A DNA stretch of 64,000 nt from contig JBAQNH010000002.1 of NCBI GenBank assembly GCA_049303575.1, positions 180,717 through 244,716 of the forward strand. Reading direction: 5' to 3'. The position numbers were made by a program, and so were the translations under genes. This document shows positions 32,885 to 36,361 of the stretch, piece after piece. This DNA comes from Microgenomates group bacterium. Lineage in GTDB: Bacteria; Patescibacteriota; Microgenomatia; UBA1400; MFAQ01. The stretch's first letter is position 1; every line of letters starts with the position of its first letter. The notes below the pieces were generated by a model, which saw nothing but the letters and a program-made list of their open reading frames with translations, made no database searches and had not been told where the DNA came from.

Positions 32885-33406
32885 ATGATTACAAACGGAT
32901 TTGGAGGAGGAAATACAATTACCGGTTTAAACTTCGAAAAAGAAACAGACATACTTAGTTTGTTGAAAACTAAGAGAGACTACTCCGTTGCCGACAATAT
33001 TATTTATTTTAAAAAGAAAGAAGTAGCAAAAAGTTTCAAAAAGCATGCATTGTATCCTTTTTTAAAAACAAAAGGTGTCGATTATAAGAAAATAATTTCA
33101 AAAAAATTATTACCTGATGAAGCAATTTATGTAATTGTGAACAACACACTTTTTGTAATTGAAGTAAAGTTTCAAAAAGTCGCAGGGTCAGTCGATGAAA
33201 AATTACAAACATGTGACTTTAAAAGGAAGCAGTATGCAAAACTGATGGCACCATTAAATATTGAGGTTGAATATATCTATATTCTTAGCGATTGGTTTAG
33301 AAAATCAGAATACAAAGATGTGTTGGATTATATAATTTCAGTTGGCTGTCAGTATTATTTTCAATATCTACCATTACAAAAGTTGGGACTTCCTATCCCT
33401 GAATAA
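32885..33406 (+). CDS. Small PD-(D/E)XK nuclease-fold protein (candidate restriction endonuclease subunit)
   Basis: ...KGVDYKKIISKKLLPDEAIYVIVNNTLFVIEVKFQK...: a D...(D/E)-x-K arrangement like Hjc/REase catalytic cores. 173 aa. Confidence 0.45.
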   Translation: MITNGFGGGNTITGLNFEKETDILSLLKTKRDYSVADNIIYFKKKEVAKSFKKHALYPFLKTKGVDYKKIISKKLLPDEAIYVIVNNTLFVIEVKFQKVAGSVDEKLQTCDFKRKQYAKLMAPLNIEVEYIYILSDWFRKSEYKDVLDYIISVGCQYYFQYLPLQKLGLPIPE

Positions 33407-33431
33407 AGTCAGATTACTATTATTATCAGTA

Positions 33432-34190
33432 TTGATTAAAAAAGACATTGTACTTAATCCAGATGAGTTTGAATTGGAATGCACATCTGTGTGGGCATTC
33501 CCTCGAAGAGGAAATTGGGCAACACACACTTCTGACTGGCGAGGAAATTGGGCTCCAGAAGTAGCTAGAAATTTAATACTACGCTACACATCAGAAAATG
33601 ATTGGTTGCTTGATCCGATGGTGGGAGGTGGTACTTCCGCGATAGAAGCCAAGATTCTTAATAGACACATTATTTGCACGGATATTAACGAATTAGCTCT
33701 TATAAGAACAAAGAAATCGCTTGAATTTGATGCAAAAAACAATGCAGAGCAAAGGTTATATAAGTGTGATGCTCGAGACCTGAAAAAAATAAGTAACGGG
33801 AAAATTGACTTTGTATTAACCCATCCACCTTACGTTGATATCATCAAATACAGTGAAGGAAACATAGAAGAAGATCTTTCAAATATCCACGACTTAGATA
33901 TTTTCGCAAATGAAATGAAAAAAGTTGCAGATGAACTTTATAGGGTCCTTAAAAATGGAAAATACTGTGCAATTTTAATCGGTGATACTAGAAGAAATAA
34001 AATGTATCAACCCCTTGCCTTTAAGGTTATGGAAAGATTTATTAATGCCGGTTTTGTATTGAAAGAAGACATAATAAAAAGGCAGTTTAATTGCAAAGCA
34101 ACTGGGTTTTGGGTAAACAAATCAAAACTAAACAACTTCCTGTTAATTATGCACGAACATTTATTCGTATTTCAAAAACCTACTGTTTAG
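33432..34190 (+). CDS. SAM-dependent DNA methyltransferase (N6-adenine/N4-cytosine type; motif I before motif IV). Start uncertain: TTG 33432 or TTG 33342.
   Basis: Motif I LDPMVGGGTSAIEAKILNRHIICTDINE and motif IV FVLTHPPYVD. No in-frame ATG near the 5' end; the track ORF begins at TTG 33342 and would overlap the upstream gene by 64 nt. Confidence 0.6.
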   Translation: MIKKDIVLNPDEFELECTSVWAFPRRGNWATHTSDWRGNWAPEVARNLILRYTSENDWLLDPMVGGGTSAIEAKILNRHIICTDINELALIRTKKSLEFDAKNNAEQRLYKCDARDLKKISNGKIDFVLTHPPYVDIIKYSEGNIEEDLSNIHDLDIFANEMKKVADELYRVLKNGKYCAILIGDTRRNKMYQPLAFKVMERFINAGFVLKEDIIKRQFNCKATGFWVNKSKLNNFLLIMHEHLFVFQKPTV

Positions 34191-34194
34191 AAAA

Positions 34195-34647
34195 ATGAAT
34201 AAGCTGTTAACAGAAGATTTTGTCCAAAATAATATAATTAAATATCTTTCCAGAACTGGATGGAGTAAAAGCTTGAAATCGAAAACACTTAAGGAACACG
34301 GAGTTGATATTAAGGTCAGGAACAACAATTTTGCAAGATATTGGCTGATCGAAGTCAAGGGTGATGCAAGCGAAACAGCGAAATATCCTAGATCTCATAG
34401 AGAAGTAAACTTTAATCTCGCCTTGGGGCAAATTATCACCCGTATGCAATCGAACGGAACAAGGGGTTATAAATACAGGTATAAATATGGTGTGGGGTAC
34501 CCAACTTCATTTAAAAATCTAATTGTTCGAAGATTACCTTATGATGTGTGCGACAAACTAAATCTTTATATATTTTTAGTTGACGAAACTGGAGAAGTTG
34601 AGCTGCTCGATTGGAAAGGATTAAAGAAAATCCAATCTTCTCATTAG
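34195..34647 (+). CDS. Small Hjc-like PD-(D/E)XK nuclease-fold protein (candidate second restriction endonuclease subunit)
   Basis: ...LKEHGVDIKVRNNNFARYWLIEVKGD... closely resembles the Hjc/archaeal-resolvase and REase core (VDxx...IEVK). 150 aa. Confidence 0.45.
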   Translation: MNKLLTEDFVQNNIIKYLSRTGWSKSLKSKTLKEHGVDIKVRNNNFARYWLIEVKGDASETAKYPRSHREVNFNLALGQIITRMQSNGTRGYKYRYKYGVGYPTSFKNLIVRRLPYDVCDKLNLYIFLVDETGEVELLDWKGLKKIQSSH

Positions 34648-34927: not shown

Positions 34928-35001
34928 CCGGGTGTAGCTCAATTGGTTAGAGCAGCTGCCTATTAAGCAGAGCGTTGGGAGATCATTCCTCCCCACCCGG
35001 A
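34928..35001 (+). tRNA. tRNA-like gene with noncanonical anticodon loop (CUAUUAA, formal anticodon AUU) and noncanonical T-loop; possible pseudo- or specialised tRNA
   Basis: Acceptor CCGGGTG/CACCCGG (7 bp), U8-A9, canonical D-arm GCTC-AATTGGTTA-GAGC, anticodon stem GCTGC/GCAGA (one G.A mismatch) with loop CTATTAA, T-stem GGGAG/CTCCC with loop ATCATTC (not TTCRANN), discriminator A. Confidence 0.45.
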
Positions 35002-35146
35002 CACCAATTAAGTCGCGCTATTCAGAACAAAGCCATCATTCAATGTACTAATTAACTATATTGACATGGTACACCCAATGTCAAGTCATAGTTCGACGAG
35101 ATTCTAGCATTTATATCAAAATGTTTCAATAAAGGATATTAATGCC

Positions 35147-35785
35147 TTATTCTTTTACAACCTTCTTCTTAGCCACTTTAGCCTTTTTAGGCTTAGCTAC
35201 TTCTTTTCCGGAAGTCATTTCAATAGTCTCAAGAATTTTTTCCGTCATATTCTTCGGTTCGGTAGGAGTCAAAAGCTTTATGATTTTGTCCAGTTTGGCG
35301 TTTAGTTCACTCAAATCCATATTTCCGGCTGCCGGTCTTTGGGAAGGAGCAAAAGATCTGGACTCACCTCTTCCACCGTCTTTTTTGGCAAAACAATCAC
35401 TACAAAGTACCGGTTTACCGTTTCTTGGTTCAAAAGGAACCTGACAATTGTCTCCACACTCATCACAAATAGCACTAAACATGGGTTTATCAAATCTGTT
35501 TCTGTCTCCAAACCCTCTGTCATTGCCTCTACTTTCGAATCTGTTTCCGCCTCTGGGTTCTTCGCCATTCATTTCACCAAAACACTTACTGCAGAAAACT
35601 TCTTTTCTACCATTAGGCTTGAAAGGAACCTGGCAACTGGAACCACATTTGGCGCACACGGCGTCAAACATTTCCTTTCGCTCGGAACCTCTGTCGTTTC
35701 CGCCTCTTGAGCCGAAACTACCCTCTCTTGGGCTGTAATACTGGCTTCTACTGTCTCCACTTCCACCTCGGTTAAAATATGTCAT
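35147..35785 (-). CDS. Protein with two CxxC-x17-CxxC zinc-ribbon repeats, an RGG/Gly-Arg-rich N-terminus and a Lys-rich C-terminus
   Basis: Repeat 1 CAKCGSSCQVPFKPNGRKEVFCSKCF and repeat 2 CDECGDNCQVPFEPRNGKPVLCSDCF. N-terminal ...NRGGSGDSRSQYYSPREGSFGSRGGNDRGSERK..., C-terminal ...KPKKAKVAKKKVVKE. Confidence 0.6.
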   Translation of the reverse strand: MTYFNRGGSGDSRSQYYSPREGSFGSRGGNDRGSERKEMFDAVCAKCGSSCQVPFKPNGRKEVFCSKCFGEMNGEEPRGGNRFESRGNDRGFGDRNRFDKPMFSAICDECGDNCQVPFEPRNGKPVLCSDCFAKKDGGRGESRSFAPSQRPAAGNMDLSELNAKLDKIIKLLTPTEPKNMTEKILETIEMTSGKEVAKPKKAKVAKKKVVKE

Positions 35786-35857
35786 ATCCTATATTATAAC
35801 ACGCTTCTCGTTTCTCACACCACTGTGTCGCGCGAGCACAGTGGACTGAGTCTCTTA

Positions 35858-35911
35858 ACAACAACTACCACCGCCACAACATCCTCCTCCGCAACATGTT
35901 TCGTTCTTCAT
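35858..35911 (-). CDS. 18-codon Cys-rich peptide ORF (MKNETCCGGGCCGGGSCC), translationally coupled to the upstream MerR-family gene; putative
   Basis: ATG lies 1 nt after the merR TAA stop. The SD-like GAGGTGA sits 6 nt upstream, inside the merR 3' end. It encodes 6 Cys in three CC pairs separated by GGG and ends TAA at 35855-35857. Downstream hairpin CCACTGTG-(9 nt)-CACAGTGG at 35819-35843. Confidence 0.4.
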
Positions 35912-35912
35912 A

Positions 35913-36323
35913 TTATTCACCTCGCCTTCCGTCGTTAATTGATAATTGATGAAGTATTTCACAGCAATAAGGCCCGTTTGCCATTAGTTTTTTCAGGCGC
36001 GATTTCAATTTTTCCATCTGAGTGATACGCTCGGTCAATAGACCCAAATACCCCTCAATCGTCTTTTGAACATACTCCTTTGAGTGTGAACAGTCTCCCT
36101 TTTCGCAACCAACAGTCAGTTTTTTAATCTCGCTCAAAGGCAACCCGAGATCTCTAGCATTCTTTATCAGCTTAATTTCTCCCAAATTTTCCTCACTATA
36201 AAATCTATACCCGTTTTCCTCCCGTGAAGGGCTTTCGATCACCCCTTGTTCTTCGTAAAATCGGATAGTTTTCGCCGGCAACCCGGTAATTTTTGCCACT
36301 TGTCCTATTGAATATTTGCTCAC
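35913..36323 (-). CDS. MerR-family transcriptional regulator with C-terminal Cys cluster (metal-sensor type, CueR/ZntR-like)
   Basis: N-terminal HTH (YSIGQVAKITGLPAKTIRFYEEQGVI...), dimerisation helix, and C-terminal cysteines (GCEKGDCSHS ... GPYCCE). GTG start at 36323. Confidence 0.8.
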   Translation of the reverse strand: MSKYSIGQVAKITGLPAKTIRFYEEQGVIESPSREENGYRFYSEENLGEIKLIKNARDLGLPLSEIKKLTVGCEKGDCSHSKEYVQKTIEGYLGLLTERITQMEKLKSRLKKLMANGPYCCEILHQLSINDGRRGE

Positions 36324-36330
36324 TTAGAAG

Positions 36331-36361
36331 ACTATACACCTTCCAGTAACTAGAAGGTCAA
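36331..36361 (-). promoter_or_regulatory. MerR-type promoter with 19-bp spacer containing a CueR-box-like palindrome (ACCTTC-N9-GAAGGT)
   Basis: Minus strand reads TTGACC (-35, rc of 36356-36361), a 19-nt spacer containing CCTTCTAGTTACTGGAAGG, then TATAGT (-10, rc of 36331-36336). The dyad ACCTTCCAGTAACTAGAAGGT spans 36338-36358. This is the same architecture as E. coli PcopA. The start codon of the MerR gene is 7 nt downstream of the -10. Confidence 0.6.

Follow-up and report, generated by a model that had tools for sequence, protein, structure and literature searches.

The minus strand of a 64,000-nucleotide (nt) stretch from a Microgenomates group bacterium (contig JBAQNH010000002.1, positions 180,717 to 244,716; the window in what follows) carries a small candidate metal-response unit. 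As shown in Table 1, it is composed of a promoter with a CueR-type operator, a gene for a MerR-family regulator (merR), a coupled short open reading frame (ORF) for a Cys-rich peptide, and an RNA stem-loop past the stop codon of this ORF. These four parts are kept together in all 29 related loci compared, in three extra contigs and in five Chloroflexi loci, with selection acting on the Cys residues at the protein level and with independence from the neighbour genes.

A previous sequence-only reading of this DNA had described most of these elements. The hexamers TTGACC and TATAGT separated by 19 bp, the 18-codon ORF one nt after the merR stop with its Shine-Dalgarno (SD) sequence GAGGTGA inside the end of merR, and the hairpin followed by a protein with two CxxC-x17-CxxC ribbons were all found where that reading had placed them. 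The imperfect dyad that it reported is also present, although understated, the real palindrome being longer (10-1-10 with one mismatch). Similarly, the two Cys motifs with which the regulator was said to end, GCEKGDC (C73, C78) and PYCC (C120, C121), exist, the first of them being located in the middle of the protein and not at its end.

A homology search with the regulator returned 339 proteins, nearly all of them metagenomic, with Collier-, Woese-, Ames- or Parcubacteria or just 'Patescibacteria group' as the named sources. A scan with one genome per species yielded 80 loci, and the 29 closest (40-74% identity) were compared base by base with the window; these are mostly metagenome-assembled genomes of Patescibacteria, some labels being doubtful (e.g., 'uncultured Pseudomonadales'). 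The three extra contigs (L203, L205 and L206) were reached via the protein database. The window and the Collierbacteria contig L004 have UDG and PF1765-like neighbours in common, and the window DNA is therefore probably of that group. In the Chloroflexi/Dehalococcoidia contigs L029, L033, L034, L037 and L065 the cassette appears at just 35-39% regulator identity, with a CueR-type box, a merR predicted to lack a leader, a Cys-rich short ORF coupled to it and a hairpin. This suggests that the unit is either deeply conserved or was acquired as a whole by horizontal transfer.

Table 1. Features of the candidate cassette and of the adjacent zinc-ribbon gene in the window.
Feature	Position	Strand	Remarks
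-35 hexamer TTGACC	36356..36361	-	read directly; overlaps the left operator arm
Operator, 10-1-10 dyad ACCTTCTAGT-T-ACTGGAAGGT, CueR-type box	36338..36358	-	inside the 19-bp spacer and the -35
-10 hexamer TATAGT	36331..36336	-	7 nt 5' of the merR GTG start
merR, MerR-family regulator, 136 amino acids (aa)	35913..36323	-	ORF and Pfam; GTG start at 36323, TAA at 35915-35913
SD sequence GAGGTGA of the short ORF	35917..35923	-	within the last merR codons (R-G-E)
Short ORF encoding MKNETCCGGGCCGGGSCC, 18 aa, 6 Cys	35855..35911	-	ATG at 35911, 1 nt past the merR TAA
3' RNA stem-loop, core stem CCACTGTG/CACAGTGG, loop CTCGCGCGA with self-complementary centre	35814..35850	-	-20.6 kcal/mol
Extended -10 (TGtTATAAT) of the zinc-ribbon gene	35793..35801	-	7 nt before its ATG; outside the module
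Zinc-ribbon gene, 212 aa, two CxxC-x17-CxxC domains	35147..35785	-	TIGR04272 and PF23477; independent neighbour unit

Promoter geometry and predicted leaderless start

The spacer between the -35 and -10 hexamers of the window reads TTCTAGTTACTGGAAGGTG on the minus strand. The arrangement TTGAC, exactly 19 bp and TAnnnT was detected in 29/29 related loci, and all of them also showed the 10-1-10 dyad, with 0-4 mismatches, in such a way that the over-long spacer (19-20 bp) and the dyad operator that characterize MerR-family promoters are both conserved. This geometry backs the assignment of the promoter to the MerR/CueR type made in the sequence-only reading. Its likeness to the PcopA promoter of Escherichia coli, including the overlap of the -35 with the left arm, was checked on the DNA upstream of copA, where CTTGACCTTCCCCTTGCTGGAAGGTTTAACCT was found in 5417/5426 complete E. 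coli genomes; the window operator agrees with it in the 19-bp spacing and, apart from one change, in the ACCTTCC/GGAAGGT arms.

The merR start codon is located 5-9 nt past the -10 in 28 of the 29 loci, and 5-7 nt past it in 26 of them; 25 loci use ATG, and GTG is found in the window and in another locus. A matching promoter-to-start layout was found in L203, L205, L206 and the Dehalococcoidia loci. Transcription usually starts around 7 nt past the -10, and therefore the mRNA is predicted to begin at or beside the start codon of merR, without a leader, as had been proposed for the window. The promoter geometry, together with this leaderless start, would thus place the regulator gene first under a MerR-type promoter of its own.

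A consensus search allowing up to 3 mismatches detected one site only in the 64-kb window (0.01 expected by chance), so this operator search returned no further regulon members within it. When the metagenomes were scanned, the operator was found mostly before other MerR subfamilies (C-terminal CVCHLVSE, no Cys peptide), Cu-type ATPases and one MerA-like gene. The exact box TTGACNTTCCAGNNACTGGAAGGT lies upstream of Cu-type P1B ATPases with CPC and DKTGT motifs in contigs among L096, L115, L119, L147 and L148, and the ORF downstream of it in L115 has 556 aa, contains HMA, ends in SCCAG and resembles mercuric reductase. As the box is generic and precedes such different genes, its use to define a regulon of the regulator subfamily or to identify the metal was rejected.

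The coupled Cys-rich peptide and the 3' hairpin

Conservation of the short ORF, on which the sequence-only reading had made its proposal depend, was complete. A Cys-rich ORF follows the homologous regulator in 29/29 related loci, in the three extra contigs and in the five Chloroflexi loci, and none was found in the same scan after ordinary proteobacterial CueR-like genes. With the first base of the merR stop as reference, its ATG in the 29 loci is found at positions from 23 nt before to 30 nt after, often with an ATGA overlap, and an SD-like motif is placed 5-12 nt 5' of this ATG in all of them. In the merR frame this motif doubles as a conserved K-G-G-E tail, and therefore selection on the SD appears strong enough to fix the last residues of the regulator.

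The products have 5-22 residues in the 29 loci and 25 in L206, with 2-8 Cys (typically 30-45% of the residues) and a CC or CxC motif nearly always at the C-terminus. Examples are MKNKTCCGGECCGEGKCC, the CxC-type MKNCTCCGDECKCGDCKC, MTDGTCCGEQGTCSC and MNGGCCGGGSCC, and loci that were at first thought to be devoid of the ORF hold minimal versions (MSPCC in L014, MRSPPCC and MRIPPCC). In the five Chloroflexi loci, four peptides of 34-37 residues ending ...CDCDCGPLCPPDCC, with CPPDCC as the last residues, and one with the sequence MTECPCPCGTCPCECCG were found.

As a control, ATG-initiated short ORFs of 5-25 codons were counted in all six frames of 218 kb of the compared loci. Among 2103 such ORFs, only 25 encoded at least 4 Cys, and 23 of these 25 were the merR-coupled ORF; in the 64-kb window, the merR-coupled ORF was the sole one with at least 4 Cys among 471. 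In the alignment of the window with L002 and L003, synonymous TGT/TGC changes were detected in 5 of the 6 Cys columns while the non-Cys residues vary freely, a pattern typical of selection on the peptide and not on an RNA. A chance ORF is excluded by these comparative data. That MerR and the peptide are generally joined by a programmed frameshift or by read-through was also rejected, because the ATG offset varies, all frames are used and the ORF always has its own SD.

Searches of Pfam and NCBIfam gave no match at E<=10 for five representative peptides and none at E<=1 for the 35-aa extended ORF, and exact look-ups of the peptide in a collection of 15 billion proteins did not find it. The low molecular weight and high Cys content by which metallothioneins are defined as a class are both present (5-25 residues, 2-8 Cys), and no match to the models of known bacterial metallothionein families (SmtA/BmtA etc.) was obtained.

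The peptide is also found joined in frame to the regulator. Such fusions account for 7 of 114 subfamily proteins (P0019, P0034, P0073, P0089, P0109, P0113 and P0116), with a ...GGE-x-M... junction kept. Vibrionaceae MerR homologues have C-terminal tails with CCGGS-like motifs, and loci L038, L041 and L056 belong to this set of fusions and tails. The existence of C-terminal extensions of both kinds, together with the tight translational coupling and with the smallest peptides having just the terminal CC pair, would suit a peptide that works as a stoichiometric partner of the sensor, a chaperone or co-sensor that delivers or strips metal or completes the MerR site, and in this way sets the threshold or resets the switch. 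We consider this explanation unlikely, though worth keeping in sight: the strong SD of the peptide against a leaderless regulator suggests that the peptide is made in excess, a Cys number ranging from 2 to 8 is unexpected for a part that has to fit a fixed site, and the fusions retain the internal SD and ATG, so that free peptide may still arise from them.

A strong stem-loop follows the short ORF in all 29 loci, starting around 5-13 nt past its stop. In 26 of them (folds read by eye) the stem sequence varies and the centre is a GC-rich self-complementary 6-8-mer, such as TCGCGA, TCGCGCGA, GCTAGC, GCGCGC or CCGCGG, shifted in most cases by an additional A or T on the 5' side; when perfect stems were required in a stricter, automatic scan, 10 of the 26 centres were confirmed. 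The remaining three loci show an ordinary terminator in place of the palindromic-centre hairpin. The centres are GGGCCC, GCGCGCGC and GGGCGCCC in the extra contigs, and the Dehalococcoidia hairpins have a CTGCAG-centred loop. Of the 63 perfect hairpins of the window, that of the module alone has such a loop.

An alignment of 22 hairpins showed compensatory changes at all 10 pairs. Paired cells amounted to 95.7%, versus 62% in shuffles and 27-55% with slid partners. This percentage is partly circular, as the hairpins were preselected, a limitation that does not affect the number of pair types. Among the cells of the inner eight pairs, 15 are G·U and one is a mismatch, which argues for a structure of the sense-strand RNA rather than a DNA palindrome. 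It is this covariation, and not the fold z-score of the window hairpin (-1.6, weak alone), that supports the reality of the hairpin. Rfam gave no relevant match in the hairpin region, and a terminator scan left the hairpin, which has no U-tract, uncalled. Pairing of the loop elsewhere in the mRNA was rejected, a second copy of the loop hexamer being present in just 2 of 26 loci. We take the hairpin to be a putative transcript-end or stability element; for its self-complementary centre, loop-loop dimerisation, a protein site and a terminator variant are the candidates.

The proximity of this hairpin to the stop codon, such that a terminating ribosome would touch it, bears on a different role for the short ORF, namely a cis sensor of the supply of cysteine or Cys-tRNA, a leader-peptide attenuator with a functionless product. 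A precedent is found in mycobacteria, where unannotated short ORFs dominated by Cys codons, also on leaderless transcripts, are cysteine-responsive attenuators (bioRxiv 10.1101/834739). In that system, however, the ORF is the first gene and controls genes of cysteine metabolism, whereas the ORF of the module is the last gene, closing the unit on its 3' side, with an SD of its own. Neither a conserved downstream gene to be regulated nor an alternative pairing partner of the hairpin in the mRNA was found, the next downstream gene being different in nearly every locus and frequently convergent. Moreover, the conserved C-terminal CC/CxC is unnecessary for stalling, and in-frame fusions to MerR are sensible only if the peptide itself matters, in such a way that we find the attenuator most improbable.

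The regulator and its putative sensory site

The regulator matches the Pfam families MerR_1 (PF13411, 6e-21), MerR (PF00376, 4e-16) and MerR-DNA-bind (PF09278, 2e-7). In NCBIfam, its best matches were the models of metal sensors, ZntR (80.9 and 78.3 bits), CueR (80.5), CadR-PbrR (74.8) and MerR (71.3), with scores that far exceed those of the SoxR, NmlR and drug-binding types. All of them stay under the curated cut-offs of 143-168 bits, as is the case for CueR (TIGR02044, 80.5 vs 147.4 bits; for PRK10227, 69.5 vs 244), ZntR (TIGR02043, 78.3 vs 168; PRK09514, 80.9 vs 143), CadR-PbrR (74.8 vs 151.5) and the Hg sensor MerR (71.3 vs 150.9), the scores to ZntR, CadR, PbrR and MerR being similar among them (71-81 bits). 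The protein therefore belongs to the metal-sensor branch without membership in any named equivalog, which agrees with the metal-sensing MerR clade in which the sequence-only reading had placed it.

CueR was the best solved structure both by sequence (69 bits) and by fold (around 35% identity), and the top fold matches of the regulator model were CueR, CadR and NmlR. The N-terminal winged helix-turn-helix (HTH) of the MerR family corresponds to the Pfam matches, and an AlphaFold (AF2) model built from 43 homologues (pLDDT 84) has the long dimerisation helix at residues 82-116. In this predicted structure, C73, C78 and H80 are located in the loop just before the helix, and C120 and C121 just past it. 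In the antiparallel MerR dimer, the metal site is formed where the pre-helix loop of one subunit meets the post-helix region of the other. Across the 43 homologues no change was seen in C73, C78 or C121, and at least 90% conservation in C120 and H80.

With E. coli CueR the regulator shares the MerR HTH and coiled-coil fold and the Ser at the helix cap, S81, which caps the N-terminus of the dimerisation helix in the model and aligns with S77 of CueR. By contrast, the C112-x7-C120 loop of CueR, which binds Cu(I), is replaced in the window protein by the vicinal C120-C121 with no upstream loop Cys, plus the conserved C73, C78 and H80 of its clade. More distant and longer homologues have a CueR-like C-x8-9-CC loop, the first Cys of which has been lost in the window clade. 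The arrangement C120, C121 and H125 (CC-x3-H) also resembles a putative C114-C115-x3-H119 pattern of ZntR. By contrast, at the position of Cys79, diagnostic for ZntR, the regulator subfamily has Ser or Thr (Ser in the window protein), and H125 is not conserved across it. From these alignments the sensory site looks like a new variant.

The position of CueR S77 is Ser in sensors of monovalent metals and Cys in those of divalent metals. In the rows of the regulator alignment that were displayed, the S81 position is mostly Ser or Thr, as judged by eye and without a column statistic. On the basis of the closeness to CueR, of Ser/Thr at this diagnostic position and of the presence of the operator also before Cu-type ATPases, we infer a slight preference for Cu(I)-type metals as inducers, with the caution that the extra Cys/His ligands would suit Zn, Cd or Hg.

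The four conserved Cys, whose arrangement is unlike that of any characterised metal sensor, also allow for a module of thiol, redox or electrophile stress, in which modification of the regulator Cys activates and the peptide is a sacrificial low-molecular-weight thiol in cells where glutathione-type thiols may be lacking. Redox sensors such as SoxR and NmlR exist within the MerR family, and some redox genes found beside the module lend slight support (msrB/msrA-like ORFs in L021, 2156-3062; the thioredoxin of an ArsR-thioredoxin-ArsP group in L203, 1331-2810; DsbA-like genes in L206, 5221-6429). We nevertheless regard it as quite unlikely, as the regulator is nearest to CueR and CadR in sequence and fold, and not to SoxR or NmlR, its Cys stand exactly at the positions of the MerR-family metal site, and the operator is of the CueR type found before Cu ATPases.

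Proposed cassette, known systems and neighbouring genes

We regard the chances as balanced that the module is a self-contained and self-activating metal-response cassette, with a sensor and a thiolate sponge peptide in around 550 bp. A dimer of the CueR-like regulator would sit on the 10-1-10 dyad of a promoter whose -35 and -10, at 19 bp, would be too far apart for efficient transcription. A thiophilic metal would then bind at the dimer interface, with C73, C78 and H80 of one subunit and C120 and C121 of the other as candidate ligands, and homology and promoter geometry suggest that the metal-bound regulator would untwist the spacer and switch the promoter on. Untwisting of the spacer upon metal binding is the established mechanism of MerR/CueR proteins. 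The transcript would start at or next to the merR start, probably with low-level synthesis of the leaderless regulator, and the strongly SD-coupled short ORF, as the only other gene on it, would yield more of the Cys-rich peptide. Being the sole non-regulatory product of the conserved unit, the peptide would have to be its effector, with thiolates that would bind the inducing metal as an analogue of a mini-metallothionein or a phytochelatin. The fall in free metal would feed back on the sensor and relieve the signal, and the conserved 3' stem-loop would close or stabilise the transcript.

Several points weigh against this proposal. The sensed metal, the binding of metal by the peptide and its feedback on the sensor are predictions, and comparison is what links the promoter to a metal and the peptide to metal binding. 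The operator type is a generic one, also present before a MerA-like gene, and does not identify the metal; the loss of the C-x7-C loop of CueR in the window clade and the scores below the cut-offs mean that the ligand could be something else. Genes related to metals adjoin the module in few loci only: a divergent CsoR and a CopA-type ATPase (L018), HMBD-MauE (L020), a ZIP transporter (L017) and the ArsR-ArsP genes of L203. The members of 5-7 residues (MSPCC, MRSPPCC and MRIPPCC) would have little capacity as bulk buffers and could be unstable, and the in-frame fusions are explained by a 1:1 association with the sensor no worse than by a bulk sponge. Finally, the proposal offers no explanation for the function of the palindromic hairpin centre.

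The type of regulator and the logic of the promoter are textbook, with the spacer and the arms over the -35 shared with PcopA; however, PcopA drives an efflux ATPase, whereas the window promoter would drive the gene of the regulator itself and the peptide on a leaderless transcript. A regulator placed first behind its own MerR-type promoter, with self-amplifying induction, is known from the Gram-positive mer operons and TipAL. In these the cargo consists of enzymes, transporters or the regulator itself as a drug sink, and in the module of a tiny peptide only.

A closer parallel for the cargo comes from Pseudomonas aeruginosa, in which the Cd/Zn sensor CadR, of the MerR type, activates Zrd. This small and Cys-rich protein had escaped annotation, and its authors propose that it sequesters the inducing metal (PMC12301328). 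Zrd is folded, has two zinc ribbons of the Cys4 type and is encoded at a locus of its own, and CadR is not autoregulated in that study (PMC12301328), in contrast to a peptide of 5-25 residues coupled to a sensor that would be autoregulated. Metallothioneins (SmtA/BmtA, MymT) and phytochelatins are likewise small and Cys-rich, the Cys/Gly composition of the peptide being phytochelatin-like and its induction by metal a putative further likeness. The peptide has no sequence relationship with bacterial metallothioneins and is two to ten times shorter, and it is encoded for synthesis by the ribosome, unlike phytochelatins. The known bacterial metallothioneins are under repressors of the ArsR or CsoR type (PMC11672702). 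No description of such a sensor-peptide module was found in the literature, including a recent comprehensive review (PMC11672702); coverage was incomplete and an earlier account may exist. The coupled peptide family is absent from Pfam, NCBIfam and the 15-billion-protein collection, and its extreme shortness, the C-terminal CC/CxC rule, the obligatory coupling to a predicted autoregulated leaderless sensor with natural fusions, and the palindromic-centre hairpin look new.

A broader reading, which we advance tentatively and are more inclined to doubt than to accept, is that Patescibacteria (candidate phyla radiation) and Dehalococcoidia would share a portable and so far unrecognised cassette composed of a CueR-derived sensor, a leaderless self-activated transcript, the smallest gene-encoded metal-binding thiol peptide (5-25 residues with a Cys-Cys end), and a new class of hairpin through whose self-complementary loop two transcripts may pair. 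In organisms that perhaps have no thiol biosynthesis, the peptide would be the ribosomal equivalent of phytochelatin or glutathione and would act directly on the sensor, this last point being suggested by the natural fusions. If the peptide binds metal, it would represent a new family of gene-encoded metal-binding peptides, invisible to gene callers, and the cassette may be the sole metal defence in many bacteria of ultra-small genome that have no obvious efflux systems nearby. A sensor, a promoter and a buffer in about 550 bp would make a compact natural homeostat, of possible use as a part for biosensors or bioremediation and as a model of sensor-buffer feedback, and the split and fused natural forms would give a handle on the reset of MerR sensors. 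The palindromic-loop hairpin adds an uncharacterised RNA element, and the comparison of regions just downstream of regulator genes reliably found very short ORFs (5-25 codons).

The sequence-only reading had also included the zinc-ribbon gene that follows the hairpin, so that three genes would lie behind one promoter. The encoded protein, with a Gly/Arg-rich N-terminus and a Lys-rich tail, matches TIGR04272 (7e-32; 108.8 bits vs a cut-off of 36) and PF23477 (8e-32; 109 vs 27), in two stretches each. In the window the genes share the strand and are closely spaced, and the lack of a U-tract in the intervening hairpin makes read-through possible. In addition, CxxC-x17-CxxC proteins bind zinc in Methanosarcina (PMC12704099), and the protein activated by CadR in P. 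aeruginosa has two zinc ribbons too, although of a different motif, CxxC-N10-CxxC (PMC12301328). A single metal-responsive operon of three genes is very unlikely in spite of this, and would exist at most in the window genome via read-through. Homologues of the zinc-ribbon gene cluster in four loci only, and in L005 and L007 the gene is found upstream of merR, at around 800 nt and with another gene in between. The genes downstream of the module are unrelated or convergent in most loci. Furthermore, TG-n-TATAAT, ATAGG(A/C)T and the ATG are conserved in the window, L005 (about 2460-2531) and L007 (about 2505-2575) whatever lies upstream, the extended -10 being 7 nt before the ATG. With its own conserved extended -10, a variable position and no presence beside merR in most loci, the gene appears to be an independent leaderless unit, and the operon, as read from these comparisons, is one of two genes and not three. 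Clustering of the neighbour ORFs agrees with this, the regulator alone being common to all loci.

In a crude count over 59 long ORFs of the window, 14 had a -10-like hexamer at 5-8 nt on the 5' side of the first ATG, and only 4 had an SD-like motif. Leaderless genes may thus be common in this genome, against which the strong SD of the Cys-rich short ORF would stand out.

Beyond the zinc-ribbon gene, the plus strand of the window contains a tRNA at 34928-35002 (Rfam 54.8 bits), to which ARAGORN assigns the anticodon ATT (Asn), very unusual for bacteria. It is flanked by an inverted repeat of around 20 nt (35031-35012 and 34919-34900), and a promoter-like site on the opposite, minus strand (35084-35055; TTGACA-18-TATAGT, near-consensus and with an internal palindrome) points into it. 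Next to the tRNA, three ORFs of 173, 282 and 150 aa (32885-34647, plus strand) resemble by their translated motifs a DNA methyltransferase and restriction-type partners, and may form a mobile or defence islet.

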